From Candidatus Latescibacterota bacterium (GTDB lineage Bacteria; Latescibacterota; UBA2968; GCA-2709665): a stretch of 64,000 bases of DNA. The notes under the pieces are model-generated. The model was not told where the DNA came from. It worked only from the letters and a program-made list of their open reading frames with translations, and made no database searches. Positions within the stretch are counted from its first letter, which is position 1. Each line of letters starts with the position of its first letter. Of the stretch, positions 13,542 through 59,300 are shown piece by piece. The stretch is from the NCBI GenBank assembly GCA_965205485.1, contig OZ242180.1, forward strand, positions 2,368,001 to 2,432,000. Reading direction: 5' to 3'. Position numbers and translations under genes: made by a program.

Positions 13542-13545
13542 CACG

Positions 13546-16566: not shown

Positions 16567-16581
16567 TGCCTTGTGGTAAAT

Positions 16582-41224: not shown

Positions 41225-41269
41225 GAGAATACAGGCTTGCCTGCACGGAATGTGGTTGAAAACGTAGCG

Positions 41270-42007: not shown

Positions 42008-42106
42008 CGCGTCGGTACGCTTTGTTTTCGCGCATGACCGGCGTCGCCGCGGTGACCGTGCCGGACTATCGGCGATCGACTTGAGGACGAAGTTTCAACT
42101 TCGGGG

Positions 42107-42874: not shown

Positions 42875-42943
42875 TACCCGCGAAATCGCGAAACCCATGG
42901 GTCAACAAATCAATAATGTCGTCAACTCCGGGAGGGATCGATT

Positions 42944-43357
42944 ATGCCGTCGGCAACCGCTTGGACGTGCAAGCTGATTCGCTCGCAGGACGTCTTCACC
43001 GGCAAGCAGGCGTTTACCTACCGTAAGGGCGTAACCGCCGAAAACACCGGGTCCCGGGGTCTCAGCATGCACCTGCTGGCCATCCCTCCGGGCGAACGCG
43101 CCAAAGCGCACCTGCACGAAGACCACGAGAGCGCCGTCTACGTCATCAGTGGCAAGTCGGGAATGTGGTACGGCGAGAATCTGGAGGAGCACGTGCGCGT
43201 CGACAGCGGCGATTTCGTCTACATCCCGCCCGGTATGCCCCACCTCCCGTACAACGCCAGCGACACCGAACCCTGCATCGCCGTCATCGCCCGCACCGAC
43301 CCCAACGAACAGGAGAGTGTTCGGCTCCTGCCGGAGTTGGATGGGATTCACCCGTGA
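42944..43357 (+). CDS. Cupin domain protein (RmlC-like)
   Basis: AHLHEDHESAVYV, GDFVYIPPGMPHLPYN, ARTDPNEQESV. Confidence 0.9.
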   Translation: MPSATAWTCKLIRSQDVFTGKQAFTYRKGVTAENTGSRGLSMHLLAIPPGERAKAHLHEDHESAVYVISGKSGMWYGENLEEHVRVDSGDFVYIPPGMPHLPYNASDTEPCIAVIARTDPNEQESVRLLPELDGIHP

Positions 43358-43419
43358 GAATGCACTGTGCCGTATCTTCCGGCGTCGGACCAGCTTCCGA
43401 TTCAGTGGTGAATCGGCAA

Positions 43420-44025
43420 TTACTGCAAATGACGCCGGACATATCCAATGCCATCGGCGAATTTCGTCAGCAGCAGGCAATCACGTGAACTCAGTTCAGT
43501 TTCGATATGCGGATTGGCGAAATCCCTGGAATTCCTGGTTATGAAACAGCATCGCTCCCGGGATTCTGCATTCAGATGGTCAAGAACGGAAGCATAAACA
43601 ATCGAATCTTGCGGGGAAAGGTTGAGCTTTTCTTGAAGACTTATCGCGGCGCTTATGACGTTTAATCCTACCGGTATCACTTCAACGGTCTGCAAAATTC
43701 CTTCCAGCGTTTCGTCCAGCCTGCGCTTTTCCTCTTCTCCGCTACGGATCAATATGCTGTTGAGTTCGTGGAAACGTTCGGATGCCGCTTCGTATGGACT
43801 TGAACGCGAGAGTTCTCGAATGGCCGTCGTGACGTCCTCGTGGATCTGTCGTCTTCGCTTCGTGCGGCGCACCCACGTTTCATAAGGCTCCCCAATGCTG
43901 AAGGCAGGCAAAACCAGGCTAATCTTACCAACTTCAGCGAGGCGCAAAAGTGCCGAGCACTCGTCATGCTCGGCCTGGAGAAAAGCAAGTTCAAGAACGA
44001 AATTTGACTCCAGATACACAATCAT
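43420..44025 (-). CDS. PIN domain protein
   Basis: IVYLESNFVLE, LSPQDSIVYASV, FITRNSRDF. Confidence 0.8.
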   Translation of the reverse strand: MIVYLESNFVLELAFLQAEHDECSALLRLAEVGKISLVLPAFSIGEPYETWVRRTKRRRQIHEDVTTAIRELSRSSPYEAASERFHELNSILIRSGEEEKRRLDETLEGILQTVEVIPVGLNVISAAISLQEKLNLSPQDSIVYASVLDHLNAESRERCCFITRNSRDFANPHIETELSSRDCLLLTKFADGIGYVRRHLQ

Positions 44026-44474
44026 GTTGTTTCTTCGAGTTCTATCGAACCGTTTGAGATAGCTTCCGACAACCCCGAGTCAAAGAGCCACTGGGAATTT
44101 CCGTCTACCGAGCCATTACGCGAGTCAATATCAAGCAGATCTCCCAGCCAGGAAATCGTTATCAATTCGAGACCGTACCGGCTTAGAACATCAAGGGATA
44201 GGTCTGATTTGAGATATGGTGCGAAAATTTCATTAGCATCAATCTTGTAGTCAGGTTTTGCCAGATTATCTGCCGTAGATGCCGCCGTCCAAAGATAAAG
44301 GTAGTCGGGGAGGACAAGGAGGAAGTATGGAACCGGCGGCAAGAATGCATGGGCCAGCAGATTTCGCCGCATAAGTGTGGCCCACTCCGCAGAAGAGACA
44401 GGCGCCTTCTTGATTTCCACGACGAGTTGCAGGCTTCCATCCGCGCCGGACACCGCTATATCGACATTTTTCAT
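44022..44474 (-). CDS. Hypothetical protein with PD-(D/E)xK-like N-terminus
   Basis: VDIAV...LVVEIK; ATGA-coupled to the PIN gene; lower GC than flanks. Confidence 0.6.
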   Translation of the reverse strand: MKNVDIAVSGADGSLQLVVEIKKAPVSSAEWATLMRRNLLAHAFLPPVPYFLLVLPDYLYLWTAASTADNLAKPDYKIDANEIFAPYLKSDLSLDVLSRYGLELITISWLGDLLDIDSRNGSVDGNSQWLFDSGLSEAISNGSIELEETT

Positions 44475-44577
44475 TTTCAGGTCCTTGACTCAATGACTGG
44501 CGTTATATCCTTGCAGCATGCACCAATGAATTCTTGAATCAGCGACGCCAGTTCGTCGGTCTATCGCTTACGGCTTG

Positions 44578-44606
44578 ATAATACCCACGCTCTCCGCCCG
44601 TGTCAA
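44578..44606 (-). promoter_or_regulatory. sigma70 promoter of the PD-(D/E)xK-like/PIN pair
   Basis: On the minus strand: TTGACA, 17 bp spacer, TATTAT. Confidence 0.65.
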
Positions 44607-44813
44607 GGGATTGCCGCGAGAAAAACAGCCTCATGCTGCCTCGCGAGCCATCCCCGCATTCTCGACGATTCGGACTACTACTCAACCTCGCTCGATCATC
44701 CTTCGGTCGGCAGACTTCCGCACCTGCAACTCACTACGTTTCTTGAACAGCTGACAAGATGGTAAAACAGGAGCGGGAATTGTAGGTGGTGACGGAGGCA
44801 GGGATCCGATACC

Positions 44814-46862
44814 CTATCGAAGCGGTTGTTTCACTCGATTGAAGTCAACCTTGTACCGATCGAGGGCCTTGAGCGCCTTGTTCCGGGGATGGGGATATAC
44901 GTCGCGTGACTTTCTGAAGGACATGACGGCGGCGTTTGTCCGGCCCTGATTCTGAAGCAGCCTTCCCTTCTGATAGTACAGCTCGGCAAGCGTCTTCTTC
45001 TTCAACGCTTCATGCCTGAGCATCTCCGCCCTGGTCAACCACTTTCCCACCTGCTCCCAGTTCGAGCTGTTTCCGTTGTCCAGTACGACCGAGGCCATAC
45101 CCAGAAGGCTCGCGTAACTGCCGTGTGCGAGCCTGAACGGTTCCTGCAATTGCTCGAACACCGGGTCCCCGGTAAAATATGCCAATCCCAGATAGCGCCC
45201 GTAGTGGAACAGCATTTCGTTCCGGCGGACCCGCTCCCAGCGGTCGGTGGGTTTCCGGTTGATGAGCTGTACGAAGAATTCTTCGCCGCGAGGATGGCGC
45301 TTCAGCTTGATCGTCCCCGGTTTCCCGCCCCTTGCAGCTTCCATCAGGAAGCCGTAGACGCGTAACTCACGGTTGGGATAGATATCGACGTCCAGGGGCA
45401 AGAAGATCGCCCGTTCGTTCGAATCGATAAACCGTTCGAGTACCGCATCCCTCTTCTTTGTCGACATGAACGGGTTGAACAGGCGTTCGCCGTATACGAG
45501 ACCCTGCAGATTGTACAATGTGACATCCGGACGGCGGTTTTCGACGTATCGATAATAGCCGATCGGCCCGGTTGTATCTCCGAAGACGAACAGGACAGCG
45601 TCTTCCGGCAAGAGGTCCAGCTGCATTTCAGCATGCCGCTCGGCGAAGTCGTTTTCGGCCCTGTCGTTTGGCTTCCAGTGGGATTGGACTGACCACCAGA
45701 CCAGGCAGACCCCGGCGAGCACAGCAGCAGAGATTCCTACCTTCGGACCGTACGGCGTTTTGTCTGTGAATTTTCCCTTCAGCCAGTGGCAGACACACTG
45801 TAGTCCGATGCCCAGCCACAACGCCAGAAGACCGTAACACAATATCGAATACGGCCGGAAGACCGCGACCTGGAAATAGTCAAAATCGAAGCGCAGCAGG
45901 ACGATCAGCACAATGCTGTTTGTAAGGAAAACCAGCAATCCCGATACCGCAATATCGGTTTGGCGCTTGCGAAACAGGAGCATCAGGCCGAGCACCGACA
46001 GCGCGAATCCCGGTAACGTCAATTGCCAAAGGAATTCGTTTCCGAGCCACTGCATGAACCTGAACCGGTCATTCCATCCGGCGCTTGGGCTGATGTCGAC
46101 TTCGACATACCCCTGCCGGCTGAAGTAGAACCAGAACGCCTTCAGGGAATCGATCGAACCGTAGAAATTGATCAGAACGTCCTGGTGAGACCGCCAGACC
46201 ATCCAGGCATAGGGCAATACCGCGCAGCATGCGAGAACGGCGAGGAGCAGCGGAAGCTTCCTGTAGAGATTCCGCCGAACGGTAAAGGCCAGCACCGCGA
46301 GTCCGGGTGCTGACAGCACCGTGAGCGGCACGTGATTGGCCAGGCTAAATCCGTAAGCCGCGGCGGCGGCAATCCAGATGCCGGTGCGGTGAGGGTGACG
46401 GACGCCGTACAGCATCAGCGCGTAGATGCCAAAGAAAAACAGCGCATTGAGCGTGTAGACCTCGGTGACGACGGCCTGAGACCAGAAATGCTCTGAGGCG
46501 GCAAACAGCACGGAGGCTGTCAGGGCGGGAATGGGCGAGGCGCCGATCAGACGGATGCAAATGTAGACGCAGCCGCACGCGAGGGCGCCCAGCGTCGCGC
46601 TGGACAGATGGCCGAGGACGGCGACGCTGCCGAAGGGAAACTGCGTGAAGAGGTAGACGATCAGCGTAAAGAGAGGATATCCCGGCGGATGGGCGACACC
46701 CAGGTGCGCGCCGGCCATCAGGAACAACCCGTCGTCTTCCAACACGACGGTGCGAGGCATCGTCAGAACGTACAGAACCAGCGGCGCCAGGATAGAGGCA
46801 ACCAGAGCCGTGCCATCGCGAAACGGCTCGATCGATCCGCGCCTGGAGTGCGCGCGCATCAT
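44814..46862 (-). CDS. DUF2723/TMEM260-like GT-C membrane glycosyltransferase with C-terminal TPR-like helices
   Basis: EDDG, LGVAHPPGYPLF, FWSQAVVTEVYTLN, many TM segments. Confidence 0.85.
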   Translation of the reverse strand: MMRAHSRRGSIEPFRDGTALVASILAPLVLYVLTMPRTVVLEDDGLFLMAGAHLGVAHPPGYPLFTLIVYLFTQFPFGSVAVLGHLSSATLGALACGCVYICIRLIGASPIPALTASVLFAASEHFWSQAVVTEVYTLNALFFFGIYALMLYGVRHPHRTGIWIAAAAAYGFSLANHVPLTVLSAPGLAVLAFTVRRNLYRKLPLLLAVLACCAVLPYAWMVWRSHQDVLINFYGSIDSLKAFWFYFSRQGYVEVDISPSAGWNDRFRFMQWLGNEFLWQLTLPGFALSVLGLMLLFRKRQTDIAVSGLLVFLTNSIVLIVLLRFDFDYFQVAVFRPYSILCYGLLALWLGIGLQCVCHWLKGKFTDKTPYGPKVGISAAVLAGVCLVWWSVQSHWKPNDRAENDFAERHAEMQLDLLPEDAVLFVFGDTTGPIGYYRYVENRRPDVTLYNLQGLVYGERLFNPFMSTKKRDAVLERFIDSNERAIFLPLDVDIYPNRELRVYGFLMEAARGGKPGTIKLKRHPRGEEFFVQLINRKPTDRWERVRRNEMLFHYGRYLGLAYFTGDPVFEQLQEPFRLAHGSYASLLGMASVVLDNGNSSNWEQVGKWLTRAEMLRHEALKKKTLAELYYQKGRLLQNQGRTNAAVMSFRKSRDVYPHPRNKALKALDRYKVDFNRVKQPLR

Positions 46863-47302
46863 CCGGTACCGTCCTGCACGTTATCCCCAGCCTCGGGAGG
46901 GGCCTCGCGAAATGTCCAGAGAGAATTGACGGAATAGTTCAGCACACCGGCGGGGGCGATCGCACACCCCTGCAGGATTACCAGCGGCACATCCGCGAAC
47001 TGTACGGAAAGCAGGACGAACGTGCCGTAACTCAACATTAGCGACACGAGCGATACAAGATGATATTTCAACCCCCGAATCCGGCGCTTTCCTGGCAGCG
47101 AGCGACTCCCGAAGGTCCAGTAGTTGTTGAGCAGAAAATTGGAGACGATGGACAGCTCGATCGCAATCGGCGACGCCAGCAGCGCGTGTACGCCGAGATT
47201 GAGCATCAATTGAAACGAACCGAGATTCACAACCACGCCGCCAAGGCCCGTGAGCGCGAATTTTCCGAATGTCGGAGAAAGTAATTTTCCGAATAGACGC
47301 AT
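46859..47302 (-). CDS. GtrA family membrane protein (start uncertain)
   Basis: KFALTGLGGVVVN, ELSIVSNFLLNNYWTF, LNYSVNSLWTF. Confidence 0.8.
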   Translation of the reverse strand: MRLFGKLLSPTFGKFALTGLGGVVVNLGSFQLMLNLGVHALLASPIAIELSIVSNFLLNNYWTFGSRSLPGKRRIRGLKYHLVSLVSLMLSYGTFVLLSVQFADVPLVILQGCAIAPAGVLNYSVNSLWTFREAPPEAGDNVQDGTG

Positions 47303-47576
47303 GGAATTCGATGGGATGCGGGTGGTGAACAGATACGGTACGGAACGCGCCTGAGAACCCTGGCGTTCGAAGAGATTCAACAAGCGTGCGTACCACGGCG
47401 TACGCAGCGATGGTGTCTCCAAGTTTAACGATATCCGCTCTCCTCGGCAACAGTTACGGGATGTCGAATGTGGCGGGTCGTACCCCGCTTAGTTTTTCGT
47501 TGACTTCACAGACATCAGACAACTGACCGTCGAACGCGCGCCGAATTCATACATCCGACCGCTTCTGTCGAGACAC

Positions 47577-47639: not shown

Positions 47640-47686
47640 GGTGCAAGATGCAACATGGTTTCATCCGGGTGACGCAGAATGGAACA
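47640..47686 (+). promoter_or_regulatory. Putative enhancer-binding-protein sites (two copies)
   Basis: GGTGCAAGATGCAACA (47640) and GACGCAGAATGGAACA (47671); same motif at 57105 and 57124. Confidence 0.5.
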
Positions 47687-47784
47687 CATCGTTCAGCAAC
47701 CGGACGTCGACAAACGGGCTGCAGGGAGGCTGGCGATTTTTTCTCTTTTGCACTCCAGACAGTTAGGTCCCGGGGTATTGTGAG

Positions 47785-47799
47785 TGGCACAATCCTTGC
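47785..47799 (+). promoter_or_regulatory. sigma54 (-24/-12) promoter upstream of the precursor array
   Basis: TGGCACAATCCTTGC (GG-N10-GC). Confidence 0.7.
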
Positions 47800-48027
47800 G
47801 AGTCCAATTCGTCGAAGGAGGCGCGATACGTGCACGAGACGCGTGGCTCGATGTCTCCAATGATTCGCATCAAGAGCAGCGCCAAAGGGGGTGTGTCGAG
47901 ACCGCGAAATGACACGCATAACCCTTTGTAAATCAAGACATTTTGGCGGCGCACATCAGCATACGGTTTATCAGGAAACGGCATCGTTTGGTTGTCGCCG
48001 GGATGTCTACGAAAGGAGGTGATTGAC

Positions 48028-48231
48028 ATGAAGAGACGCATTGCATCACGCCTTGTAGACACGTCCGGAATTCCGTCTCGGTTGCCCATCCGGACGGAGG
48101 ACCTGACTGACGGGCAGACGGCTCGCATCTCCGGTGGAGCCATACGCTGGCGGGCGATACTGAAAGATGTGTTCGGCATCGATCTGGGCACGAATTTGCC
48201 GGAAACAGGCGCGGCTGGTCCATTGCTGTAG
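48028..48231 (+). CDS. Double-glycine leader peptide precursor P1
   Basis: AAAGGAGGTGA RBS; 37-aa leader ending EDLTDGQTARISGG; core AIRWRAILKDVFGIDLGTNLPETGAAGPLL. Confidence 0.78.
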   Translation: MKRRIASRLVDTSGIPSRLPIRTEDLTDGQTARISGGAIRWRAILKDVFGIDLGTNLPETGAAGPLL

Positions 48232-48315
48232 TATTCGAGTTGCATACCAACCAGGTATGTTGCCTGGAAAATCAAACAGGATGTCATACGGACACAATAG
48301 AAAGGAATTGACGAA

Positions 48316-48504
48316 ATGACGGACCAGATCCTTGCCACGTCAGCTCAGGCATCTGTGGCCTGCGCTCAACTCCCAGAACAAGAAATCGGCCTGGCACGTC
48401 GTGAGATGGTGAATACATCGGGGGGTCTTCTACCACCAATTCCGCTTCCTTTAGCCCGTCTGATTGCCGAGATCATCAAGGATTACCTTGACGACGGGGA
48501 TTGA
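48316..48504 (+). CDS. Double-glycine leader peptide precursor P2
   Basis: AAAGGA RBS; 37-aa leader ending GLARREMVNTSGG; core LLPPIPLPLARLIAEIIKDYLDDGD. Confidence 0.78.
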   Translation: MTDQILATSAQASVACAQLPEQEIGLARREMVNTSGGLLPPIPLPLARLIAEIIKDYLDDGD

Positions 48505-48735
48505 AGTGGGGGCCAACAGGACGAAGTCTCTCCCATTCGCCGGCCTCCGCTGTTGTGAATTCGAACTGAATCTTCAACGACCTCGTTTTTCCAATCTGAT
48601 CTTCTCCAATAGCGAAGACGAAGCCGCAAGGGTCGTCAGCGATCTGAAAACTCAACGAGTTGTGGCGATTCTGGGGAGATCCGAAAACGGCTACTTTCTG
48701 CGCATCGTTGAAGCGGCCAGAAAAAACGTGCATTA

Positions 48736-48936
48736 ATGGCAGAGCGGATTAGTTTTAGGTTTGGGGTGAGTTCTGTGGCCTGCCATCAACCTATCGGAGG
48801 TCTCGGTGCCTCCGGCGCGGTCGGAGATCGCGTAAACGGTTTAGCCGAAATTTTCAGATCCATAGCCGTCTCGTGTTGCCAGCGTTTCGGCGAAGCTACA
48901 AACACAACGGACGTTAACTTCGGGATAATCGACTGA
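48736..48936 (+). pseudogene. Possible decayed paralogue of precursor P2
   Basis: I5, SVAC 13-16 and Q18 in the same register as P2; no intact GG motif or clear RBS. Confidence 0.3.
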
Positions 48937-48953
48937 CTCTACAGGAGGTAATC

Positions 48954-49238
48954 ATGACTCATGCATTGGCGAATCCGATGGCGACTGATGGCGGTCTTAT
49001 GGTCGTAGACTGCAATCCGCTTCAGCGGCAGGAAGAAACGCTTAACAGCGGGCAAATGGGAGACACACAGGGCGGAATCTTGATTGGACCGGCCCTTTAC
49101 TTGATTGCAAAAGCCGCTGCACCCTATGTGGCGGGTGCTGTTACTGCAATCGTCGTTGGAGTGGTTCTCGCTGAGATTGCGCCGAACAACGGGTGCAATA
49201 GCTGTACGTGCAACACAAGGCCACCTGGACGCCGTTAG
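48954..49238 (+). CDS. Double-glycine leader bacteriocin-like precursor P3
   Basis: AGGAGGT RBS; 41-aa leader ending TLNSGQMGDTQGG; hydrophobic core with CNSCTC tail. Confidence 0.82.
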   Translation: MTHALANPMATDGGLMVVDCNPLQRQEETLNSGQMGDTQGGILIGPALYLIAKAAAPYVAGAVTAIVVGVVLAEIAPNNGCNSCTCNTRPPGRR

Positions 49239-49315
49239 GTTTCGTGCGTGGGATAGGAGCGATTTGTTCGCTCCTATCCCACAAAGACCAATAGACACAA
49301 CACTGGAGGTCCCGG

Positions 49316-50128
49316 ATGAAGGACATCATCCACACACGATCGCGGAGGGGTTGGGTCTTCGCGGCCATATCGTACACGCTGTTTTCCGTTGTGCCTGCTC
49401 TGCTGATTCTCAGATACGTCATTCAAATCGATCTTGCGATCCTGACAGCGGTCCTGGCCAGTCAGGCAGTGTCGTTTATAATCTTCCGAAAAAAGCTCTA
49501 TGAAACTGCAGCGGTAATGATGAGCGCGGTCCGCGGATTACTTGAGTCGAGTCCCGGCGCTATTGAACCAGGCCAGGATTCTAACGTCACCGAAGTGATT
49601 CTTGAAAAACAAGAGATGTACAGTTTATACTTTTTGATGTTCTGGATTTCGGGAATGTCTGTCATCGGGGTAGATGCTTTGCTTCCGTGGGCAATAGAAC
49701 TGCGATTTCCTCTTGTTGATCTATGGAAATTGATTGGAGGATTAATCGCCTTGTATGTGATTCACGAAGCGCTTCACGGTCTCGCCGCGATGGCGTGGGG
49801 AAAAATTCCATTTAGTTCGCTGCACTTTGGAATCAACGTGCGATTAATGGCCTTTTACTGCCACGCTGACAAACCGATGACACTGAGCGCATACCGGGCA
49901 TTCGCGCTACTGCCGTTAATCGTAACAACACCTGCCGCGGTTTTAGTTCTGTCGTTTGATCCGGCGATCTGGTCGGTCTTGATACTATGTTCCACGTTTG
50001 CCGGGGGCGCGGGAGATGTGATGGTTTTTTTCAAGGCTCGCAGGTATGACAATGACAGTTGGATTCAGGATCATTTGTCAGAAGTGGGTTTCACAATGTT
50101 TCCCGCAGGGGAGACACCCGCACGCTAA
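49316..50128 (+). CDS. DUF3267 (zincin-like HEXXH) membrane protein
   Basis: GGAGG RBS; IHEALHG, FG...FYCH, ALLP, GGAGD, IQDH..EVG. Confidence 0.85.
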   Translation: MKDIIHTRSRRGWVFAAISYTLFSVVPALLILRYVIQIDLAILTAVLASQAVSFIIFRKKLYETAAVMMSAVRGLLESSPGAIEPGQDSNVTEVILEKQEMYSLYFLMFWISGMSVIGVDALLPWAIELRFPLVDLWKLIGGLIALYVIHEALHGLAAMAWGKIPFSSLHFGINVRLMAFYCHADKPMTLSAYRAFALLPLIVTTPAAVLVLSFDPAIWSVLILCSTFAGGAGDVMVFFKARRYDNDSWIQDHLSEVGFTMFPAGETPAR

Positions 50129-50249
50129 GCGACCGTAAACGGAACCGCTACAAGGGTATCCGGCAGGCGCATTACAAGAACATGGATGACTTCCACGACG
50201 TTCGGTTAAGGTAGTTCCACCTAACATCCCGCCGGCATCTACAATCGAT

Positions 50250-50851
50250 ATGGATTCACAAGAGATCACCAACAGGGATTCCCACGAGGTCCTCACGATC
50301 CGGACAGGCGCGCTTGCGATGTTCCTGCTTTCGCTTGTGATGTTTTTTGTCGCGGTAAACGTGGCCCGTGTGGTGCACTCGGGCTTGTCCGGATGGAATA
50401 TTGACCTCCAGCCGGACAGTTTCAATCTGTGGGTGTTTCTGGGAAGTCTCGTCTTGCTGGTGGTTGTCCACGAAGCGTTGCATGCCCTGGCCGCATTGCT
50501 GTGGGAAAGGCGCATTTAAGTTCGATTCGTTTCGGGTACAATTTGAAATGGCTCATCGCCTACTGTCATTGCTCGAGCCTGATGAGGAAGCGCGCCTTTC
50601 GCAGATTCCTGCTGTTGCCCCTCGCGGTCACAGTGCCGTTTGCCGGTCTTTTCCTTCTGTTGTACCCGTTTTTGTGGACACTCCTGCTCTTCAGTTTGAG
50701 TTTTTCTGCATGTGCGGGGGATGTGTTGATTGATTTCAAGGTCCAGAATTTGCCCGCCGACCTGTGGGTTCAGGATCACCCTTCGGAAATCGGATGCTAT
50801 GTCTGGCCTGAAGGGCAATCTCCGCCAGGTGGTGGAGTGTATCGGGGGTAG
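50250..50851 (+). pseudogene. Second DUF3267 protein, split by a 1-nt frameshift at ~50503-50505
   Basis: VHEALHA in one frame continues as GKAHLSSIRFG..AYCH..CAGD..VQDHPSEIG in another. Confidence 0.8.
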
Positions 50852-51276
50852 CGTTCACTGCGCTAGGACTGTGGTGGTTTGCCCGGGTTTCACAGACCGC
50901 GCAACGTGTTTCCGATGGCCAGGATCCGCTTGCGGATGCCGAGACCGATGCAGTTTAGGGCCTGATCGGTTGCTCTTGGCCGTGATCATAGTCGAATCGG
51001 ACAGGGGTTACTCAAGCCTGGCGTTTGGTCGATAATACGCAATGGAATACTAAATATAATATGTTTCAATACTAATTATAGTATGTATCGGCAAGTATTC
51101 GCGGACTTCGGGCGTGGCAAGCTAGAATTGAGCGGCTTGTTAAGGATTGCCCTTCGAGGCCGGAAAATCCCGGATCTCCGGCAGGAAGAACCCCTGGTAA
51201 CCGGCGAATCGCCCTCGGTCGGAAATCGATCTACATCCGGAAACGCCAATAATCCTTCCATTTCGGGAAAGGAACT

Positions 51277-54200
51277 ATGGACGTCTTTACCCACTTTTCT
51301 CAGGCGTCGAATCAAACGGAATCCGTACGGTTTCGCTTCGGAGAGATTGTAATTGTACAAGGGGCGCCTGGCGATGCGTTCTACATGCTAAAATCGGGCC
51401 GGCTGCGAGTAATCAAACGGAATACGGACGGCCAACCTGAAACCGTGGGATTTCTTTATGCCGGCGACCACTTTGGCGAGGGCGCGCTGTTGACGGGGCA
51501 GGGACATCGGGCGGTGGTGCGAGCCGCGGAGGATTCCGTGGTGCTGAAGGTGTCGCGGGATGAATTCCTCGATGTATTGAAGAAGGAGCCGGAGCTGGAG
51601 GCCTATCTGCAGGACCAGGTTGCGAATATCGCGTACCGGGACTTCACGAGGTATCTGAAGGGGTCCGTTTCCGGGGATGGCATGCGGGAGCTGTTCCAAC
51701 GTCTGAAGCGAGAGGAGGTCGCAGCGGGCGCGTCGTTCACGCAATCCGGTCACACGAGCGAGCGTTTCTGCGTGGTGGGCAGCGGCGGGTTGGACGTGAT
51801 GCTTGAGGACGGAAGCACGCACTCGCTCGACGCCGGGGATTTTTTCGAAGAGACGGATTCTACTGTCGGCGGCTCACGGACGATCCGCAGCCGGGTGAAT
51901 AGCGTTATCTACGTCTTGGAAAAGCCTGACCTGGAAAGCCTGAGTCAATCAATCCTTGCATTAACGCCCTTGAGAGAGATGGCACGGCGATTGTACAAGG
52001 AACCGGCACCGGACAGGTCGATGTCCCGCGAGATTCAATCGGGCGGAATTCACGTCCACACGGAAACGGCGGCGGTGAACAACGCCGTTGCGGCGAACGG
52101 CGGGCCATACGATGTCCCGAATTCCAGGACATCTGACGAGCAGCGCAGAACATCGACGGCGTTTCGTTTTCCGTTTCTGAAACAACACGATCAGTCCGAC
52201 TGCGGGGCGGCGTGTCTGGGGATGATCTGCAAGTATTTCAGGATGCCGATCGGGTTGAACCGGCTGCGGGACATGTGCAACGTGTCGCGGGACGGCACGT
52301 CGATGGCGGCATTGGCAGAAGCGGCGGAGACGCTTGGATTTGTCACGCGGGGCGTGCGCACCGGCTACGAAGCGTTGATGCGAACGGAATTGCCGGCCAT
52401 TCTGCACTGGGAAGGCAACCATTTCGTTGTCCTGTATGAGATCAACAAGAAGGGTGTGAAAATCGCGGATCCGGGCGTGGGTATTCGCAGATTGGCCCGG
52501 AGGGAGTTCGAGAAGAGCTGGACCAACATGGCGTTGCTCCTTGAATACACGGATCAAGTGGCGGAGAATGAACCCTCCAGATCTTCCTTCAAGCGTTTTT
52601 TCCCGTTGATCAAGCCCTATACGGCCATTCTGGTCGAGGTCCTGCTGGCGTCCCTGGTACTCAGCCTGTTGGGCCTTGCCTCGCCGGTTTTTACGCAAAC
52701 TATAGTCGACCAGGTGCTGGTGCATCACGACGAGGACCTTCTGAACCTGATGCTCGCGGGTATGGTCGTCGTGGCGCTCTTCCAGATGGGGACATCGACG
52801 CTGCGCGCGTATCTGATCGGATATATCAGCGCCAGGTTGAGCCTCACGATGTTGTCGCGGTTCTACCGCCATCTGCTGGGCCTGTCCATGCGGTTCTTTG
52901 CGTTGCGCCGCACCGGCGATCTGACCACGCGATTCAAGGAAAACGCGACGATCCAGCGGCTCTTCACCGACACGACCATTTCGGCGATCCTCGATTTTAT
53001 CATGTTGTTCGTCTATCTTGGGCTGATGTTCTACTACAATTGGGAGTTGACGCTCGTGATGTTGATTTTCGTGCCGCTCTCGGTAGGGCTCACGCTGATC
53101 TATACCCCGATCCTGAAGTCCTTCAGCCAGCGGGCATTTCTCGCTCGCGCCGAACAGTCCTCCGTACTGATCGATTCGCTGCACGGAATCGACGTTGTGA
53201 AAGCCGAAGCGGTCGAACGGGTAACGAGATGGCAGTGGGAGGGCAAATTTACAAGGGAAATCCAGATCGGATTCCGACGATTGAAAATGGAGATGCTGTT
53301 CGGCGCAGGCGGTAGTATGATCAATCTCCTGAGTTCCACGGTGATTCTGTGGTATGGCGCCTCTCTGGTTATCGACGGTGAGTTGTCAGTCGGTCAATTG
53401 ATGGCTTTCAATGCCCTTATCGGCAACGTGATGGGACCCATAATGGGATTGATCGGCGTGTGGCCCGAGGTTCAGGAAGCCCGGGTCGCCCTGGACAGGC
53501 TGAATGACGTCTATGACTCTAAGATGGAAAGTGCGCGCCAGCGCGGACACGGCCTGAGACTGAAGCAGGTTGAAGGCCGTCTGATTTTCGAAAACGTGTT
53601 CTTCAGGTACGGCGTTGGAACCGATGAACCCTACGTCTTGAACAACATCGACCTGGAACTGAAGCCTGGACGAAAGGTCGCCATCGTCGGCCGCAGCGGC
53701 GCCGGAAAAACCACGCTCGTCAAGCTCGTGCCCCGCCTGTTCGATCCCACGGAAGGGCGCGTGCTGCTGGACGGGATGGATATGCGCGATTTCGACCCTC
53801 ACTGGCTGCGCCGCCAGGTGGGCATGGTTATGCAGGACTCTTTTCTATTCAGCGGAACCATTGCGGAGAACATCGCGGTCGGAGAACCGGACGCGAATAT
53901 GGACCGCCTCCTGGAAGTCGCGAAATTGGCATGCGTTCACGACTTCGTAAACGAGATGCCCCTGGGATACGAGACGAAGGTGGGCGAACAGGGAATCGGA
54001 TTGTCCGGCGGCCAGCGGCAACGTGTTGCGATCGCGCGCGCGCTGTACCGCGATCCGGGAATACTGATCTTCGACGAAGCGACAAATGCGCTGGATACGG
54101 ACTCGGAGGCTGCGATCCAGACCAATCTGGCGCTGTTCCTGGAAAATCGCACGTCCCTGGTCATCGCCCATCGCCTGAGCACGGTGAGGGATGCGGACAC

Positions 54201-54312
54201 GATTCTCGTAATGGAAAAGGGCCACATTCTCGACACCGGCACGCACGAAGAACTGATGCTTCGACGGGGTCTTTACTATCACATGTGCAGCCAGCAGTTG
54301 CAGCTGACCTGA
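51277..54312 (+). CDS. Peptidase-containing ABC transporter with N-terminal cNMP-binding domains (cNMP-cNMP-C39-TMD-NBD)
   Basis: GDHFGEGAL..HRA; KQHDQSDCGAACL, HWEGNHFVV, IADP; GRSGAGKT, LSGGQRQR. Confidence 0.93.
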   Translation: MDVFTHFSQASNQTESVRFRFGEIVIVQGAPGDAFYMLKSGRLRVIKRNTDGQPETVGFLYAGDHFGEGALLTGQGHRAVVRAAEDSVVLKVSRDEFLDVLKKEPELEAYLQDQVANIAYRDFTRYLKGSVSGDGMRELFQRLKREEVAAGASFTQSGHTSERFCVVGSGGLDVMLEDGSTHSLDAGDFFEETDSTVGGSRTIRSRVNSVIYVLEKPDLESLSQSILALTPLREMARRLYKEPAPDRSMSREIQSGGIHVHTETAAVNNAVAANGGPYDVPNSRTSDEQRRTSTAFRFPFLKQHDQSDCGAACLGMICKYFRMPIGLNRLRDMCNVSRDGTSMAALAEAAETLGFVTRGVRTGYEALMRTELPAILHWEGNHFVVLYEINKKGVKIADPGVGIRRLARREFEKSWTNMALLLEYTDQVAENEPSRSSFKRFFPLIKPYTAILVEVLLASLVLSLLGLASPVFTQTIVDQVLVHHDEDLLNLMLAGMVVVALFQMGTSTLRAYLIGYISARLSLTMLSRFYRHLLGLSMRFFALRRTGDLTTRFKENATIQRLFTDTTISAILDFIMLFVYLGLMFYYNWELTLVMLIFVPLSVGLTLIYTPILKSFSQRAFLARAEQSSVLIDSLHGIDVVKAEAVERVTRWQWEGKFTREIQIGFRRLKMEMLFGAGGSMINLLSSTVILWYGASLVIDGELSVGQLMAFNALIGNVMGPIMGLIGVWPEVQEARVALDRLNDVYDSKMESARQRGHGLRLKQVEGRLIFENVFFRYGVGTDEPYVLNNIDLELKPGRKVAIVGRSGAGKTTLVKLVPRLFDPTEGRVLLDGMDMRDFDPHWLRRQVGMVMQDSFLFSGTIAENIAVGEPDANMDRLLEVAKLACVHDFVNEMPLGYETKVGEQGIGLSGGQRQRVAIARALYRDPGILIFDEATNALDTDSEAAIQTNLALFLENRTSLVIAHRLSTVRDADTILVMEKGHILDTGTHEELMLRRGLYYHMCSQQLQLT

Positions 54313-54339
54313 ACTTTCGGCTGACGAGGAGCCGGTCGG

Positions 54340-55743
54340 ATGGCGGAACCGCGACAATTGGCGTCTTCGGGAGCGTCGTCGCCGATGCATCTGCCCGCGC
54401 GGGAGCAGGTTTCGGAGGAGATGCAGGCGTTTTTCGGGTCGCTGAGGCCGTTCTGGGGGCGGGCGCTGCTCTACGTCGTTCTTCTGTTTGTCGGGATCGC
54501 GGTGTTCTGGGCATGGCGGGGCAAGGTGGACGTTGTGGCTTCGGCGCCGTTTCAACTGGTGCCGATGGGGAAGGTGAAGACGTTGCAGGCGCGCCGCGGC
54601 GGCGAGATCGAGCACATCGGCGTCAGCGAGGGCGATCGCATCGAAGAGGGGCAGTTGCTGTTCAAGCTGAAGTCTTGGGAAACCTGGGGAGACCTTCGAG
54701 AGCTGGAACAGGCGGAAATGGCGTATCAACAGGCCGGATACGACTTCAAACAGGTATTGCCCCGGAGATCGGAATTGAACCTGGAGACGATCGCGTCGCT
54801 CGAAAAGCGACTGGCCGTTCTGCAGCGGTTCATGGCGGCGCATCAGAACGCCCTCAGGGACTACCACGACGACGCGGGTGATGCCGAAGGATCCGGAAGT
54901 GACAATTCCGAGGCGGAACTGCAGGCACAGATCGGCTTCAGGCAGGCGGAAATCGATCACTTGAAGCAGGACTATCTTCAGCAGAAGGCATTGTTCCAGA
55001 GGAAACTGATCAGCCGGGTGGATATCAATCAGGCGCGTGTACGGTACCTGAGCGCACTCGCAGCGCTTCCGGGACGCATGTCGGAAATATACAGGAACGA
55101 AACGGCCGTCCAGGACCTCAAACGTCAGATTCTGGAGGCGCGAATCGAGCACGGCCGCGAGGCGTCAAAGATGAAACACGCGTACGAAACCGCGCGATTG
55201 AGACTGGAGCAGGCGCGCAAACGCGTCGACCGCCGGCTGGAAGCGGAGTCGGACCTCATATTGGCGCCGGAATCCGGCATTGTAACGCGGGTGGAGGTGA
55301 ATGCGCTCGGACAGGTTATCAGCAAAGGGCAGGCGCTGGTTTCAGTAGCGCCGGCGTCCGCTCCGATCGTCGCCGAGCTTACGGTATTGAACAGGGACGT
55401 GGGCATGCTGAAACCGGGTCAGATCGTGAAGCTGAAATACGACGCCTTCGCATTCCAGGATTTCGGAATCAAACGCGGGTGGCTCAAACAGATCTCGCCG
55501 GATGCCGTCATCGATGAGATTGTCGGACCGGTTTTCAGGGGTGTCGTTGAATTGGAAGAAACCACCGTGGACGTAAAGGGACAGGAGAAACCGCTCCGGT
55601 TCGGCATGAAGGGCACCGCGGAGATCATGACGGACCGCCAATCCGTCCTGCTGATGCTTCTGAGTCCTCTGCGAAGGCTTTACGAGTCAGCATCGTACGA
55701 CGCCGTAAAGTCGGCGGCAGCTCAGCCGGAGGATTCGTTATGA
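54340..55743 (+). CDS. HlyD family secretion adaptor
   Basis: Single TM, lipoyl half-motifs, coiled coil, LKYDAFAFQDFG, ISPDA, GMKGTAEI. Confidence 0.92.
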   Translation: MAEPRQLASSGASSPMHLPAREQVSEEMQAFFGSLRPFWGRALLYVVLLFVGIAVFWAWRGKVDVVASAPFQLVPMGKVKTLQARRGGEIEHIGVSEGDRIEEGQLLFKLKSWETWGDLRELEQAEMAYQQAGYDFKQVLPRRSELNLETIASLEKRLAVLQRFMAAHQNALRDYHDDAGDAEGSGSDNSEAELQAQIGFRQAEIDHLKQDYLQQKALFQRKLISRVDINQARVRYLSALAALPGRMSEIYRNETAVQDLKRQILEARIEHGREASKMKHAYETARLRLEQARKRVDRRLEAESDLILAPESGIVTRVEVNALGQVISKGQALVSVAPASAPIVAELTVLNRDVGMLKPGQIVKLKYDAFAFQDFGIKRGWLKQISPDAVIDEIVGPVFRGVVELEETTVDVKGQEKPLRFGMKGTAEIMTDRQSVLLMLLSPLRRLYESASYDAVKSAAAQPEDSL

Positions 55744-56555
55744 CTCCTCGCGCGGAAGATGGGAACCCGATTCCTTCCCGGGAAATCACGCTCGTCCAGG
55801 TCAATGGCGCCGGTGTGTCGCTGAGTCAGGTCGTCCGTCAACTGGGGGTCGTCGACAAACTCGATTTCTTCGGTGAATTCGCGCGCAGAGAACTCGTGCG
55901 CCAGCTTGCGGTCCGGGAAGGCATCCGTTCAAAACCGGAAGACATCCAGCGCGACGTGGACGACTGGCGCTATCGACATCGCCTGGAACGTGTTGAAGAC
56001 ACGGAAGCGTGGCTCCGGTCCCGAGGCATTACCCTCGGCGACGTCGCAGAAGACGCTCAGGCGAAACGGTTGGAGCGTGCGTTGTCCGACAAGGTCGTGG
56101 ACAGAAGGATCCAACCGTACTTCGCTCAGCACAAGCTGGATTTCGACGAGGCGGAAGTCAGCTGGATTTTTCACCGTAATAGAGGCGTGATAGAAGAAAT
56201 CGGGCTTCAGGCCATAGAAGAAGGCGCTGATTTTTGCAGAATGGCCCGCGAGTACTCACAAGATGAACGCACGCGTCCGTCCGGCGGGTTTGTCGGGCGC
56301 GTTCGACGCGGACAGTTGCCGAAGGGTATTGCGGCGCGCCTCTTCGCCGCCGAACCTGGTGAAGTTTTCGGACCCGAAAAGGCATCGGGCGGCTTCGCGT
56401 TGTATATGCTGCAGCGGAACTTTCCGGCAGTCCTTGATGATAGCGTTTCAAATGAGATTCGCGATACGCTATTCAGTCAGTGGCTGCAGAGTGAGTTTCA
56501 GCGGGCGGAAATACACTACCCGATCTGGGAAACCGCGAAGGCGGTCCAGGAGTAG
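55740..56555 (+). CDS. PpiC-type peptidylprolyl isomerase-related maturation protein
   Basis: WRYRHRL..WL..GITL, DFCRMAREYSQD..GGFVG, EVFGP; coupled to HlyD. Confidence 0.82.
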   Translation: MTPRAEDGNPIPSREITLVQVNGAGVSLSQVVRQLGVVDKLDFFGEFARRELVRQLAVREGIRSKPEDIQRDVDDWRYRHRLERVEDTEAWLRSRGITLGDVAEDAQAKRLERALSDKVVDRRIQPYFAQHKLDFDEAEVSWIFHRNRGVIEEIGLQAIEEGADFCRMAREYSQDERTRPSGGFVGRVRRGQLPKGIAARLFAAEPGEVFGPEKASGGFALYMLQRNFPAVLDDSVSNEIRDTLFSQWLQSEFQRAEIHYPIWETAKAVQE

Positions 56556-56741
56556 GCGGGAGACGTGGCACGGTGACGGGTCCCTTCGCCGATGGCGACC
56601 GTTCAGTCGTTGAGGCGCGAACATCATATCCCCATGTCGTTTCGTTGCATCAGGCCGTTGATTCAGTATTTCGACGTGGGCTGCGTAAGCATCTACGCCG
56701 ATTTCAGATCGACCCGTTTCTGCAGAAATGCAAATTAGCCC

Positions 56742-56770
56742 TTGTCATTCACAAGAGCGGAAACTATATT
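56742..56770 (+). promoter_or_regulatory. sigma70 promoter of the candidate ncRNA
   Basis: TTGTCA, 17 bp spacer, TATATT. Confidence 0.55.
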
Positions 56771-56774
56771 CCGG

Positions 56775-56990
56775 TTGTCACCACTCGGGCAGTGCCCGTA
56801 TGTCGGGTAGCCTACCGAATACAATAGCCGACATTCAGGGGCAAGGGTAGCTCCCTTGTCCCCGGCGAATACGTAGGACCTTCCCGCATCCTAAAAGCTG
56901 CGTGAGTGGTGACACTGCCCGGCACCCTTTAATCGGGGTGCCGCTAAGATGCTCATCACTGAACGGCGGGGGATGAAGCGGGATTTTTTT
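56775..56990 (+). ncRNA. Candidate highly structured ncRNA (family unassigned)
   Basis: GTCACCACTC/GAGTGGTGAC closing stem enclosing several hairpins; GGCACCC/GGGTGCC hairpin; T run near 56990. Confidence 0.5.
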
Positions 56991-57104
56991 ATGCCCTTCG
57001 CTGTTGGTCCTCCTCAACATCCATCGCGTGTCAACGTCTTCCGTTGCAGTGCCAAGCCGCTGACTTTGTCGTAAGACGCCTACAACATTGGGTCGGCGCC
57101 AGGC

Positions 57105-57139
57105 GTTGCAGAATGCGCCATACGATGCAAAATGCATCA
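57105..57139 (+). promoter_or_regulatory. Putative enhancer-binding-protein sites (two copies)
   Basis: GTTGCAGAATGCGCCA and GATGCAAAATGCATCA. Confidence 0.5.
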
Positions 57140-57332
57140 CATGTTAACGCGCGCGTTCCAGCTACGCAAAAAAAGCACGCAGACACGGGTTTCATCTCAC
57201 GTCCGCGCCGGCGTACCGGTATTTTCCTTGAAGCGTCGAGACGCAAATCGCTACACGTCCGCTTCTCTTCAAAGCGCCTCACCATTTTAGCCAAATGCTT
57301 TATATACTTTAAGTTATTCGCTTATTCAAATC

Positions 57333-57348
57333 TGGCTCGCATTTTGCA
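57333..57348 (+). promoter_or_regulatory. sigma54 promoter upstream of the CPBP protease pair
   Basis: TGGCTCGCATTTTGCA (GG-N10-GC), preceded by an AT-rich tract. Confidence 0.65.
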
Positions 57349-57506
57349 TATCGACCTGGATTGTTCGACACCCAAACAGGACACCGAATGCGACCGCGGC
57401 AAGAGGACTGCCGGAGTTGCGGGCTCGATGAAATCCGCCGCTCGCGCCGGAATGCGGGGTCGTTGGATCCACTTTCGTCCGGTCGCATCAATAGGGGAGG
57501 GAATAA

Positions 57507-58361
57507 ATGGCGTATCCGAATCTGAAGCAGTCCGTCTGGCTGATGGTCTTGCTTGTGGTGGCAACGAGCGCGCTGGGGATGATGCTTCATTTCCTCGGCG
57601 CCGCGTCGGACAATGAAACACGAATCTTCGAATACCTGGGATGGATTCTAAACCTTCCCGTTTTCGCTCTACTCGTGTTATATGCGCAGCGTCGATCCGG
57701 TCGGCCCTGGTCGGACGTCCTGCTCTTAAGGACAGTACCGTGGAAAATGTACCTCCCACTTACTGTCTCGATCCTGGGATTCGGCATTGTCATATCCGAC
57801 CTTGCAACCTTCGTGCAATATCTGATTCCAATTCCCAAAGTATACCTCGAGATATTCCTTGATCTAATGGGGAGCAAAACACCTCTTGGTCTCGCGTTTT
57901 ATGTTCTCGCGATTCACGCGCCGCTTACCGAGGAAGTTCTCTGCAGAGGCGTTATTCTTGGCGGGCTGTTAGCCAACGGTACCCGCCGGCGTGCTATTTT
58001 TTGGTCTGCAGTGCTGTTCGCCGCGATGCATATGAATCCATGGCAGTTTCCAGGATCCTTGATACTGGGTCTTGTATTCGCGTGGTGGGTCGTACAGACA
58101 GGTTCTTTGCTGCCTGCGTTATTCGGTCACGCTCTGAACAATTTTCTGTCGTTGATTTCGGTGCGTATGGAGATATTCCGTCCTATCGAGGATTGGGGTG
58201 TTGTGGAGTTTCTGCCATGGTGGCTGCTTGTGTGCGGTATTGTACTGGCTGCGGTCGGTCTGCGGTGGTTCAATCAAATGGCAAAACGCGAAGGGACGCC
58301 GCTGGCTCCACCGGCTGAACCGGAGCCGGTCGTAACGGCGGTGGCCGAGAAATCAGTCTGA
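57507..58361 (+). CDS. CPBP (CAAX/Abi) intramembrane glutamic endopeptidase
   Basis: APLTEEVLCRG, FAAMH, GHALNN. Confidence 0.92.
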   Translation: MAYPNLKQSVWLMVLLVVATSALGMMLHFLGAASDNETRIFEYLGWILNLPVFALLVLYAQRRSGRPWSDVLLLRTVPWKMYLPLTVSILGFGIVISDLATFVQYLIPIPKVYLEIFLDLMGSKTPLGLAFYVLAIHAPLTEEVLCRGVILGGLLANGTRRRAIFWSAVLFAAMHMNPWQFPGSLILGLVFAWWVVQTGSLLPALFGHALNNFLSLISVRMEIFRPIEDWGVVEFLPWWLLVCGIVLAAVGLRWFNQMAKREGTPLAPPAEPEPVVTAVAEKSV

Positions 58362-58445
58362 CGGCGCAACACGCGGGGCGACACTCGACTTGGGTCCGGA
58401 TTGTTCGACTTGCCGGCATCTCCTCACCCAAACAGGAGGGAATAC

Positions 58446-59300
58446 ATGGCGTATCCGAATCTGAAGCAGTCGGTCTGGCTGCTGATCTTGTTTTTCCTGA
58501 TAAGCGCGGCACTGGGTGTACCGGTTGCCATCCTGGGTTTCATCCTGGACCAGACTTTGCACGGGAGTCCGTACGTAATCTGGCTATTAACGCTCATCAG
58601 TTTCGTTCTGGTGGCTGCTTACTCGAAGCGCCGAACAGATCGGACCTGGCGAAATATCCTGCAATTCAGGCCCGTATCCTGGCAACTGTCCCTGCCGCTC
58701 GGGGTGTCAATCATCGGCCTGGCAATCGTCGGTTCAGACCTGGGAAACCTCATGCGACATCTGATACCGGCACCTGAAATAATCGTCAACGCATTGAAGG
58801 AGCTGGCGGACAAGGAAAGTCCCTTTGGGCTGTCTTTTTATGTCATGGTGGTTCAGGCTCCCCTGACTGAGGAAATCCTCTTCAGAGGCATCATTCTCGG
58901 CGGCCTGCTGACCCACCGAACGCGGAACCGGGCGATCGTCTGGTCCGCGGTCATGTTTGCGCTGTTTCATGCGAACCCGTGGCAATTCCCGATCGCCCTG
59001 ATATTGGGGATCGTATTCGCGTGGTGGGTTGTTCAAACCGGGTCCCTGGTACCGGCGATTGCAGGGCATGCGCTGAACAATTTTCTGGCATTGACGGTTG
59101 CGCATCTGGAATTATTCGGACCGATTGATAGTCCCGATACGGTGGTGTACTATCCGTGGTGGTTGCTTGCCGGCGGTATCGTCCTGGCTGCGGTCGGCTT
59201 GCGGTGGTTCAATCAGATGGCAAAACGCGAAAGTTCATCGCTCGAAAACCGCGTTCAACCGGAGCAGGCCGATGCGCCTGATAACCGGGAACCGGTCTGA
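58446..59300 (+). CDS. CPBP (CAAX/Abi) intramembrane glutamic endopeptidase, tandem paralogue
   Basis: APLTEEILFRG, FALFH, GHALNN; same MAYPNLKQSVWL start. Confidence 0.92.
   Translation: MAYPNLKQSVWLLILFFLISAALGVPVAILGFILDQTLHGSPYVIWLLTLISFVLVAAYSKRRTDRTWRNILQFRPVSWQLSLPLGVSIIGLAIVGSDLGNLMRHLIPAPEIIVNALKELADKESPFGLSFYVMVVQAPLTEEILFRGIILGGLLTHRTRNRAIVWSAVMFALFHANPWQFPIALILGIVFAWWVVQTGSLVPAIAGHALNNFLALTVAHLELFGPIDSPDTVVYYPWWLLAGGIVLAAVGLRWFNQMAKRESSSLENRVQPEQADAPDNREPV

Follow-up and report, generated by a model that had tools for sequence, protein, structure and literature searches.

A family of double-glycine peptides with variable cores and associated membrane genes in Candidatus Latescibacterota

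The subject of this report is a cluster of genes found at positions 47785..59300 of a 64,000-nt stretch of DNA (hereafter the window) from the 5.1 Mb genome of a Candidatus Latescibacterota bacterium (assembly GCA_965205485.1, contig OZ242180.1). A preliminary description of the window had pointed to three small open reading frames (ORFs), each with a strong ribosome-binding site (RBS) and a leader ending in a double glycine (GG), and all three are present (P1, P2 and P3; Table 1). They are followed in the order then proposed, all on the + strand, by DUF3267 sequences, a C39 transporter, an HlyD-family protein, a PpiC-like protein and two CPBP/Rce1-like genes. The 5′ part of the locus is AT-richer than the rest of the chromosome, as had been suspected (GC content is 52.5% over 47785-51276 and 59.9% in the genome). 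Two details have had to be abandoned: the locus is not complete, as one DUF3267 gene is frameshifted and one CPBP gene is reduced to a remnant, and position 47785, where the locus had been said to begin, is that of a sigma-54 promoter and not of a gene.

Table 1 Features of the locus (window coordinates)
Feature	Position	Strand	Description
Pair of palindrome-like sites	47649..47695	+	Lie about 90-135 bp before the sigma-54 promoter; conserved across 14 aligned loci of the genus
Sigma-54 (-24/-12) promoter	47785..47799	+	Consensus match
P1 precursor (short type A)	48028..48231	+	67 aa: 37-aa GG leader and 30-aa amphipathic core
P2 precursor (short type B)	48316..48504	+	62 aa: 37-aa GG leader and 25-aa amphipathic, acidic core
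P3 precursor (long type C)	48954..49238	+	94 aa: 41-aa GG leader and 53-aa core
D1	49316..50128	+	Two-transmembrane (2-TM) 'E' module fused to DUF3267 (site-2-protease clan); PF11667 E 1e-15
D2, second DUF3267 gene	50250..50851	+	Two frames, pseudogene
CPBP C-terminal remnant (deletion scar)	about 50818..50958	+	Abuts D2; positions 239-273 of 280 of the CPBP profile
Long-type peptidase-containing ATP-binding cassette (ABC) transporter (PCAT)	51277..54312	+	Two cyclic nucleotide monophosphate (cNMP)-binding domains, C39 peptidase, ABC membrane and ATPase domains
HlyD-family periplasmic adaptor	54340..55743	+	TIGR01843 201.6 bits, cut-off 208.65
PpiC/rotamase-like protein	55740..56555	+	No predicted membrane segment
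Structured non-coding RNA element	56776..56944	+	Upstream of the CPBP pair; own sigma-70-like promoter 56742-56770
CPBP/Rce1-like protease 1	57507..58361	+	Motifs intact; same clade as cassette CPBPs
CPBP/Rce1-like protease 2	58446..59300	+	Motifs intact; about 55% identical to protease 1

Precursors with a shared leader

Published work is cited here by PubMed Central number. The leaders of P1, P2 and P3 all end in GG and carry hydrophobic residues at -4, -7 and -12, a pattern that corresponds to the motif described for PCAT substrates (hydrophobic residues at -12, -7 and -4 and glycine at -2; PMC10885120). Such leaders are rare in the window genome: of its 642 small RBS-bearing ORFs only four have one, three of these being P1-P3, and the profile of the leader family matches no other sequence there. 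The P3 core is made up of a membrane-length hydrophobic helix (best 19-residue hydropathy 2.14) and a Cys-rich tail.

The leader profile applied to related genomes identified 95 precursors in 38 of 39 loci, every one upstream of the transporter and on its strand. When further loci were included, the total rose to 131 distinct precursors, with 58 of 59 loci represented. The leaders are 37-47 amino acids in length, with a C-x2-L-P motif conserved at -22 to -18. Among the 95, leucine is found at -19 in 94 and at -12 in 88, proline at -18 in 79 and cysteine at -22 in 66. Position -1 is glycine in 74 and leucine in 14, and 21 leaders end in Gly-Leu, Gly-Ala, Gly-Gln or Gly-Thr rather than GG; the glycine at -2 is partly set by how the leaders were delimited. 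One long-type leader (in locus L033) was delimited too short in the sets used for the pairing and dN/dS (non-synonymous to synonymous substitution rate) analyses and for the window ORFs, and the motif counts are taken from the set of 95.

With dN/dS values of 0.32 for the P1 type (14 sequences), 0.28 for the P2 type (17) and 0.31 for the P3 type (13), the leaders are under purifying selection. The precursors are supported as the genuine genes they had been taken for. Conservation is higher in leader than in core in each type (0.67 vs 0.48, 0.55 vs 0.40 and 0.41 vs 0.29), and across the family the cores vary widely, many of the long ones ending in runs of cysteine. Glycine-zipper cores of relatives give weak, sub-cut-off matches to the Bacteriocin_IIc (E 3e-5) and Gly-zipper (E 1e-5) models.

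Among 168 genomes from the phylum, 41 contain the leader family, and these are confined to two families of one order; the transporter orthologues are close across the genus and its sister family. Eleven records among the relatives are named, as Candidatus Latescibacterota (seven), Gemmatimonadota (three) or uncultured (one), those of the two phyla being metagenome-assembled genomes. Screening of 1.84 billion representative proteins with the leader profile returned 113 matches, 102 of which are short proteins with the leader at the N-terminus, the remaining 11 being long or repetitive proteins matched by chance; none of ten matches looked up is a named protein. None of 80 leaders matches an NHLP, Nif11 or HetP model, and only one has an NCBIfam match of any kind (TIGR01847, E 0.049). 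The family fits no curated model in these searches.

Two loci of one genome (L044 and L080, genome G022) consist of tandem repeats of a whole unit of short peptide, long peptide and CPBP, with long cores that end in up to seven consecutive cysteines. Four further loci (L076-L079) have precursors that lie away from any transporter; one of them is a complete cassette run that includes E and CPBP genes, and in the other three the precursor stands by itself. One contig each of sequencing runs X1 and X3 joins 48139 to 48942 with 90% likeness and unknown letters between, only a hint of a co-occurring strain with another core behind the P1 double glycine.

Long cores and their membrane partners

In the genus to which the window genome belongs, each locus encodes 2-4 precursors and several membrane proteins. 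The short peptide or peptides come first, then a single long peptide and a run of membrane genes that differs between loci, and after these the transporter trio and one to three further CPBPs. The preliminary description had tied the membrane proteases to the peptides, and here it is supported: the type of long core predicts the class of its partner gene. The core cluster gave the class of the next gene correctly in 40 of 46 cases, whereas 20,000 shuffles yielded 19.9 on average and 27 at most; the test covers 48 pairs within 1 kb (nine of 57 pairs lay farther apart and were dropped, and two single-member clusters are uncounted) and its statistic is inflated by kinship. One long-core type is followed by a stand-alone DUF3267 gene in all ten of its loci, drawn from three genera, glycine-zipper cores with a WDW motif by a gene for the 2-TM E protein in eight of eight, and P3-type cores by D1 in four of four, two related cores being followed by a CPBP. 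D1 is accordingly listed here as a candidate cognate partner of P3. The stronger case for pairing comes from examples that cross families, among them the CPBPs found behind one rare core in L023 and L080, which belong to different families and yet form a deep clade of their own (Shimodaira-Hasegawa-like approximate likelihood ratio test 100, in a quick tree).

Cassettes of core and partner are scattered over the transporter tree in a manner close to that of shuffled labels. On the 14-tip tree (FastTree) the five cassette types need at least six changes, and 696 of 5000 shuffles need six or fewer; the labels for core and next gene were set by hand, one to one, so that only their scatter on the tree is informative. 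Co-folding of D1 with residues 30-90 of P3 gave a score of 0.49 (best control 0.00), the runs agreeing on at least 79% of contacts with a predicted local distance difference test (pLDDT) score of at least 60 for the partner. The mark set for such scores is reached by 116 of 157 solved complexes and two of 215 mismatches, those at a score of 0.60 or under numbering only 18 of the 157 and both mismatches. The model lends the D1-P3 pairing weak support, and immunity and maturation would fit it equally.

The DUF3267 part of D1 possesses a HEALH sequence at position 150 and an aspartate at 234, the HExxH and distal Asp that also characterise the DUF3267 protein of the TMcin system, and six TM segments are predicted. 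HExxH is retained in 32 of 33 DUF3267 pieces. The N-terminal 90 residues of D1 are homologous to the E family (hhalign gives a probability of 95.8, and 0.7 for the control, with an E profile that includes one member itself fused to DUF3267). In relatives E is a stand-alone 2-TM protein of 85-95 aa, for which no named match was found. An AlphaFold model of D1 had a mean pLDDT of 47.6 and was not used for fold comparison.

Two DUF3267 genes with HEXXH motifs had originally been proposed; D1 is borne out but D2 is not intact, being one base short near 50500-50507 in comparison with intact relatives (L022, L024 and L025). An assembly error can be ruled out as the source of the frameshift, and the lesion taken as real, because contigs from runs X1 (50429-51690) and X4 (50297-51831), two samples of one study of which X1 may be the source sample, cross it without a gap. 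Locus L025 carries a whole CPBP where the window has only the remnant. The window genome has DUF3267 at this locus only and the same-genus DUF3267 genes, among the matches listed, all lie in the orthologous locus; one same-genus genome with an E-type cassette has no DUF3267. Fragments of membrane genes are seen in seven of 15 same-genus loci. A 178-aa membrane protein with no family match (L049:3355-3888 and homologues) recurs among the partner genes of the sister family and is a possible fourth partner type.

On balance, we think it probable that the locus belongs to a polymorphic, class IIa microcin-like peptide system whose long cores are matched by cognate membrane immunity proteins. Cognate immunity is favoured because three unrelated protein families share one slot, move with the cores, and accumulate and decay, and because there is a precedent in the CAAX-family protein McsI, which confers immunity to microcin S (PMC3316575). 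An unlikely alternative is maturation of the kind seen with TMcin, where the DUF3267 protein TmcP removes the leader and requires a 2-TM escort, TmcE (PMC13712780): DUF3267 would trim a membrane-inserted long core with the E module as its escort, either following the C39 cut or in place of it, the product would then be exported, and pairing would reflect the specificity of enzyme for substrate. The fusion of 2-TM and DUF3267 parts in D1, the membrane-length helix of P3, the retention of HExxH and the leaders that do not end in GG (leucine at -1 being a poor fit to the canonical GG/GA/GS) are all in keeping with this, and the weak D1-P3 co-folding result fits it just as well. However, the leader would already be removed by the intact C39 domain, three unrelated families, one of them without a catalytic motif, occupy the same slot behind different cores, and partner copies accumulate and decay in the absence of a matching precursor. 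The additional helices of D1 are, moreover, N-terminal, whereas the TmcE-like helices of six-TM DUF3267 proteins are helices 5 and 6.

Export, glycosyltransferases and regulation

The C39 residues of the transporter had been described as intact, and Q303, C309, H382 and D398 prove to be invariant in all 39 aligned matches, as do the Walker residues. Since the leader motif fits and the catalytic residues are intact, cleavage by C39 after GG followed by type I secretion of the cores is very probable. Secretion of a large RTX-type protein was considered as another use for the transporter and rejected: none of 59 loci of up to 20 kb has an ORF with two or more RTX repeats near the transporter, and the C39 cysteine is intact. 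Eight outer-membrane efflux genes (16 domain matches, in pairs) are encoded elsewhere in the genome. In the PpiC-like protein, tryptophan (W142) and alanine (A220), each found in 37 of 38 sequences, occupy the positions of the two parvulin active-site histidines; lacking both, the protein is probably a chaperone. One congener (G014) has an orthologous transporter with its N-terminus split over two frames (L075/L113) and four precursors and their partners intact, as well as a second transporter elsewhere (L038) that is 61% identical and has a different GG leader.

The preliminary description had held that the locus has no tailoring enzyme. This is true of the window genus, in which no modification enzyme is found between precursors and transporter, but not of its sister genera, which have glycosyltransferases (GTs), and DUF3267 is an intramembrane protease that removes the leader in TMcin biosynthesis (PMC13712780). 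Two or three GT domains are found at the head of the operon in the sister genera. A GT4-like protein of 467 aa, which carries 100 extra residues as a C-terminal domain and usually ends 52-230 bp before the first precursor, is preceded by a GT28-like domain, often within an 850-aa ORF; in paralogous loci, where identity is about 50%, the two still accompany the precursors. Of the 168 genomes, 25 have the GT4-like C-terminal part, and each of these is one of the 41 leader-bearing genomes; the other 16 are the window genome, 14 congeners and one genome that is 82% complete. A GT28-like query found nothing in the 14 congeners, nor in the window genome at E 1e-40. As both families and several genera have the GTs, the simpler reading of this distribution is that the window genus is a derived form from which they have been lost, the direction of change being our inference.

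The extra GT domain, which has no Pfam or PDB sequence match, is modelled as three helices, with a strand region at pLDDT under 50 and no clear fold match; it was considered as a candidate RiPP (ribosomally synthesised and post-translationally modified peptide) recognition element, a domain built of three strands and three helices. The sister-genus loci resemble glycocin and TIGR04157 systems in combining a GG precursor, a PCAT and a glycosyltransferase. Known glycocin transferases are, however, GT2 enzymes, whereas those of the sister genera are GT-B (PF00534, PF04101) and score 33 bits against TIGR04157 (cut-off 400), no radical SAM enzyme recurs, and the window genome lacks these enzymes.

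Glycosylation bears on a further and very unlikely possibility, that the products are non-toxic surface or matrix components, or acidic, Cys-rich metal binders, glycosylated first in the sister genera. There is a precedent in EbfG1-4 of Synechococcus elongatus, GG-motif proteins that are exported by a C39 transporter and required for biofilm formation (PMC4997328), several of these small proteins being likewise co-transcribed ahead of a C39 transporter of HetC-like architecture. Most cores in the present family are acidic, many long ones end in cysteine, one core class has no partner gene, and GTs stand at the head of the operon in the sister genera. What such roles leave unexplained is the one-to-one travel of core and partner and the turnover of cassettes between close relatives; the EbfG proteins promote biofilm, and that source (PMC4997328) does not report an exchange of cassettes together with cognate membrane genes.

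The promoter at the head of the locus matches the sigma-54 consensus. All 14 same-genus loci have a match 241-245 bp before the first precursor, but it is missing from the 25 other loci tested; the chance rate is 0.009 per 400 bp, and RpoN and 14 strong enhancer-binding proteins are encoded elsewhere in the window genome. A pattern drawn from the palindrome-like sites upstream has one match in the whole genome, and these sites are candidates for enhancer-binding-protein sites. A fourth precursor at 47784-47912 was considered and dismissed: it has neither an RBS nor a leader-profile match and its apparent conservation is that of the promoter. The 5′ leader of P1 (47800-48027, +) has a conserved hairpin directly before the RBS, with two-sided changes in seven of 30 predicted pairs among 14 close relatives, and may possibly serve in translational control.

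A sigma-54 promoter preceded by such sites implies a regulator that responds to a signal, which raises the prospect, rather improbable in our view, that the peptides are strain-specific signals in quorum sensing or kin recognition, the short cores acting as pheromones and the membrane proteases, some of them catalytically dead, serving to process, sense or clear them. The two cNMP-binding domains of the transporter and the several CPBPs without a catalytic Glu could be accommodated in this way, and one PCAT, ComA, is the exporter of a pheromone (PMC10885120). However, no gene for a kinase, regulator or receptor was seen to recur between precursors and transporter in the loci examined. Long cores with glycine zippers or membrane-length helices are also unlike pheromones.

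The RNA element upstream of the CPBP pair has a folding z of -6.25 and two-sided changes in 20 of 33 predicted pairs across 16 copies. It is built of a promoter, a long covarying outer stem, conserved inner hairpins, a possible pseudoknot and a closing hairpin, is dispersed (other copies L095-L113) in 31 of 53 genomes of the order, and often sits right before the RBS of genes for membrane or secreted proteins. Its only Rfam matches are sub-threshold ones to sRNA-Xcc1 (best 27.6 bits, cut-off 53). It resembles a cis-regulatory leader or an RNA of the C4/Xcc1 kind, and it is uncertain that it belongs to the peptide system. Of two ORFs discarded as parts of the system for want of a family match (48464-48736 and 56573-56827), the second overlaps this conserved RNA.

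Beyond the locus, positions 41237-47422 encode a GT2 glycosyltransferase, a SAM methyltransferase, a PIN-domain gene pair, a TMEM260-like GT-C protein and a GtrA flippase, possibly a lipid-linked glycosylation module that diverges from the peptide operon. The divergent GtrA and TMEM260-like genes (44814-47422) were rejected as parts of the system: they are conserved neighbours within the genus, and both are absent from other genera. The TMEM260-like gene is missing or partial in L021, L024, L031 and L033. A second, separate peptide exporter lies at 10101-18287 (+), comprising an NHLP-type HlyD and two ABC transporters above NCBIfam cut-offs, then a 104-aa NHLP-like precursor with a His-rich core near 16700 and an unassigned ORF at 16935-18287. 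Genes at distant loci (L090:6873-9661, L045:11851-12924 and L092:10418-11716) encode an M16 peptidase pair, an S41 peptidase and a tetratricopeptide repeat (TPR) protein.

Related systems and a proposed mechanism

The locus had been put forward as apparently undescribed, which holds in part only. A core of cNMP-PCAT, HlyD and rotamase has been described from cyanobacteria (Wang, Fewer, Sivonen 2011, PMC3140520), whose group I/II clusters share with the present locus a long-type C39 transporter with an N-terminal CAP_ED (cNMP) domain, HlyD and a SurA/rotamase, along with GG precursors that occur in arrays, had been overlooked and have varied cores, most of them acidic. The transporter, HlyD and rotamase of group I are all found here in one cluster, but the host is not a cyanobacterium, the leader is not of the NHLP, Nif11 or HetP type, and DUF3267, CPBP and 2-TM cassettes are interleaved; the words 'immunity' and 'glycosyl' do not occur in the main text of PMC3140520. 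The class IIa microcins, exemplified by microcin S (PMC3316575), share an unmodified GG precursor, a PCAT with HlyD, a CAAX/CPBP-family protein beside the precursor (an immunity protein there) and glycine-rich cores with cysteines. They are defined by four genes, with one precursor and one immunity gene, whereas the present system has several precursors, leaders of 37-47 aa with C-x2-L-P, cNMP domains, a PpiC-like gene, three alternative partner families and a sigma-54 promoter; the absence of a modification enzyme that marks the class is seen in the window genus and not in the sister genera.

With TMcin (PMC13712780) the locus shares DUF3267, a 2-TM accessory and a one-helix precursor with cysteines. 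TMcin comes from Gram-positive bacteria and has no PCAT, HlyD or GG leader, and its exporter is of the two-gene TmcBC ABC type, unlike the single-chain PCAT with HlyD found here, where in addition the 2-TM module is found at the N-terminus or by itself, and where DUF3267 is an optional component (missing from some loci). The two share a protease family, not a pathway. For sponge-associated Latescibacterota only generic antiSMASH RiPP-like calls are reported in PMC12993501. A search of the open-access literature found no description of the present system, and for DUF3267 together with bacteriocin returned, among the matches listed, TMcin and a staphylococcal mecA region. What looks undescribed is the leader family, the pairing of cores with partners in cassettes, and the form of the locus that bears glycosyltransferases.

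Taken as a microcin-like system with cognate immunity, the locus would work as follows. The sigma-54 promoter, supported by its conservation, would drive the precursors, which the PpiC-like protein probably holds in the cytoplasm until the C39 domain of the PCAT cuts them after the double glycine, and the PCAT-HlyD pair, together with one TolC-like channel of the genome, would export the cores. The long type C core would be the variable, membrane-active payload and the short A and B cores its helpers or second components. Each long core travels with the matching membrane gene behind it, be it DUF3267, CPBP, a 2-TM protein or a 2-TM-DUF3267 fusion such as D1, and these partners most likely confer self-immunity by binding the cognate core within the inner membrane and cleaving it there. 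Extra, broken and orphan partner copies could be leftovers of earlier cassettes or be kept against the peptides of neighbours.

Several observations tell against this scheme. Most bacteriocins are cationic, unlike the cores of this family, 71 of 95 of which carry a net negative charge. The P1-P3 cores match no Pfam or NCBIfam family, and their nearest ESM Atlas matches, to class II bacteriocins, score 0.87, below the 0.9 mark. In all 11 of its loci, one common long core stands directly before the transporter without an intervening membrane gene, and the precursors of L077-L079 have no DUF3267, CPBP or E gene nearby. Lysine replaces the first catalytic Glu in nine downstream CPBP copies of the genus, so that cutting cannot be required of all CPBPs. 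Of 14 same-genus loci, 13 retain D1 but only four have a P3-type core, which fits orphan immunity but would fit a general role also. Finally, the only characterised DUF3267 protein, with its 2-TM escort, is a maturation protease and not an immunity protein (PMC13712780).

A broader version of the immunity reading, which we advance tentatively and regard as doubtful, is that of a polymorphic peptide-conflict system in which intramembrane proteases from two unrelated clans (DUF3267 of the site-2 clan, and CPBP) and a 2-TM protein serve as interchangeable, sequence-specific antidotes, each passing between strains in one cassette with the core it matches. The ancestral form of this system, retained by the sister genera, would glycosylate its peptides by means of dedicated GT-B enzymes that read the extended C-x2-L-P leader. 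If this were true, the ancestral GT-B form would represent a class of glycopeptide RiPPs not built on GT2. The family offers over 100 natural cores that have a leader and an exporter in common, and the genomic context serves as a key from each core to its membrane protein. This makes it possible to ask experimentally whether CPBP/Abi proteins confer immunity by cutting the cognate peptide and what DUF3267 does outside TMcin. It also provides precursors for the widespread but little-studied cNMP-PCAT/HlyD/rotamase module outside the cyanobacteria. The dedicated glycosyltransferases to which it draws attention may produce glycopeptides of a new type, in a lineage that is uncultured.

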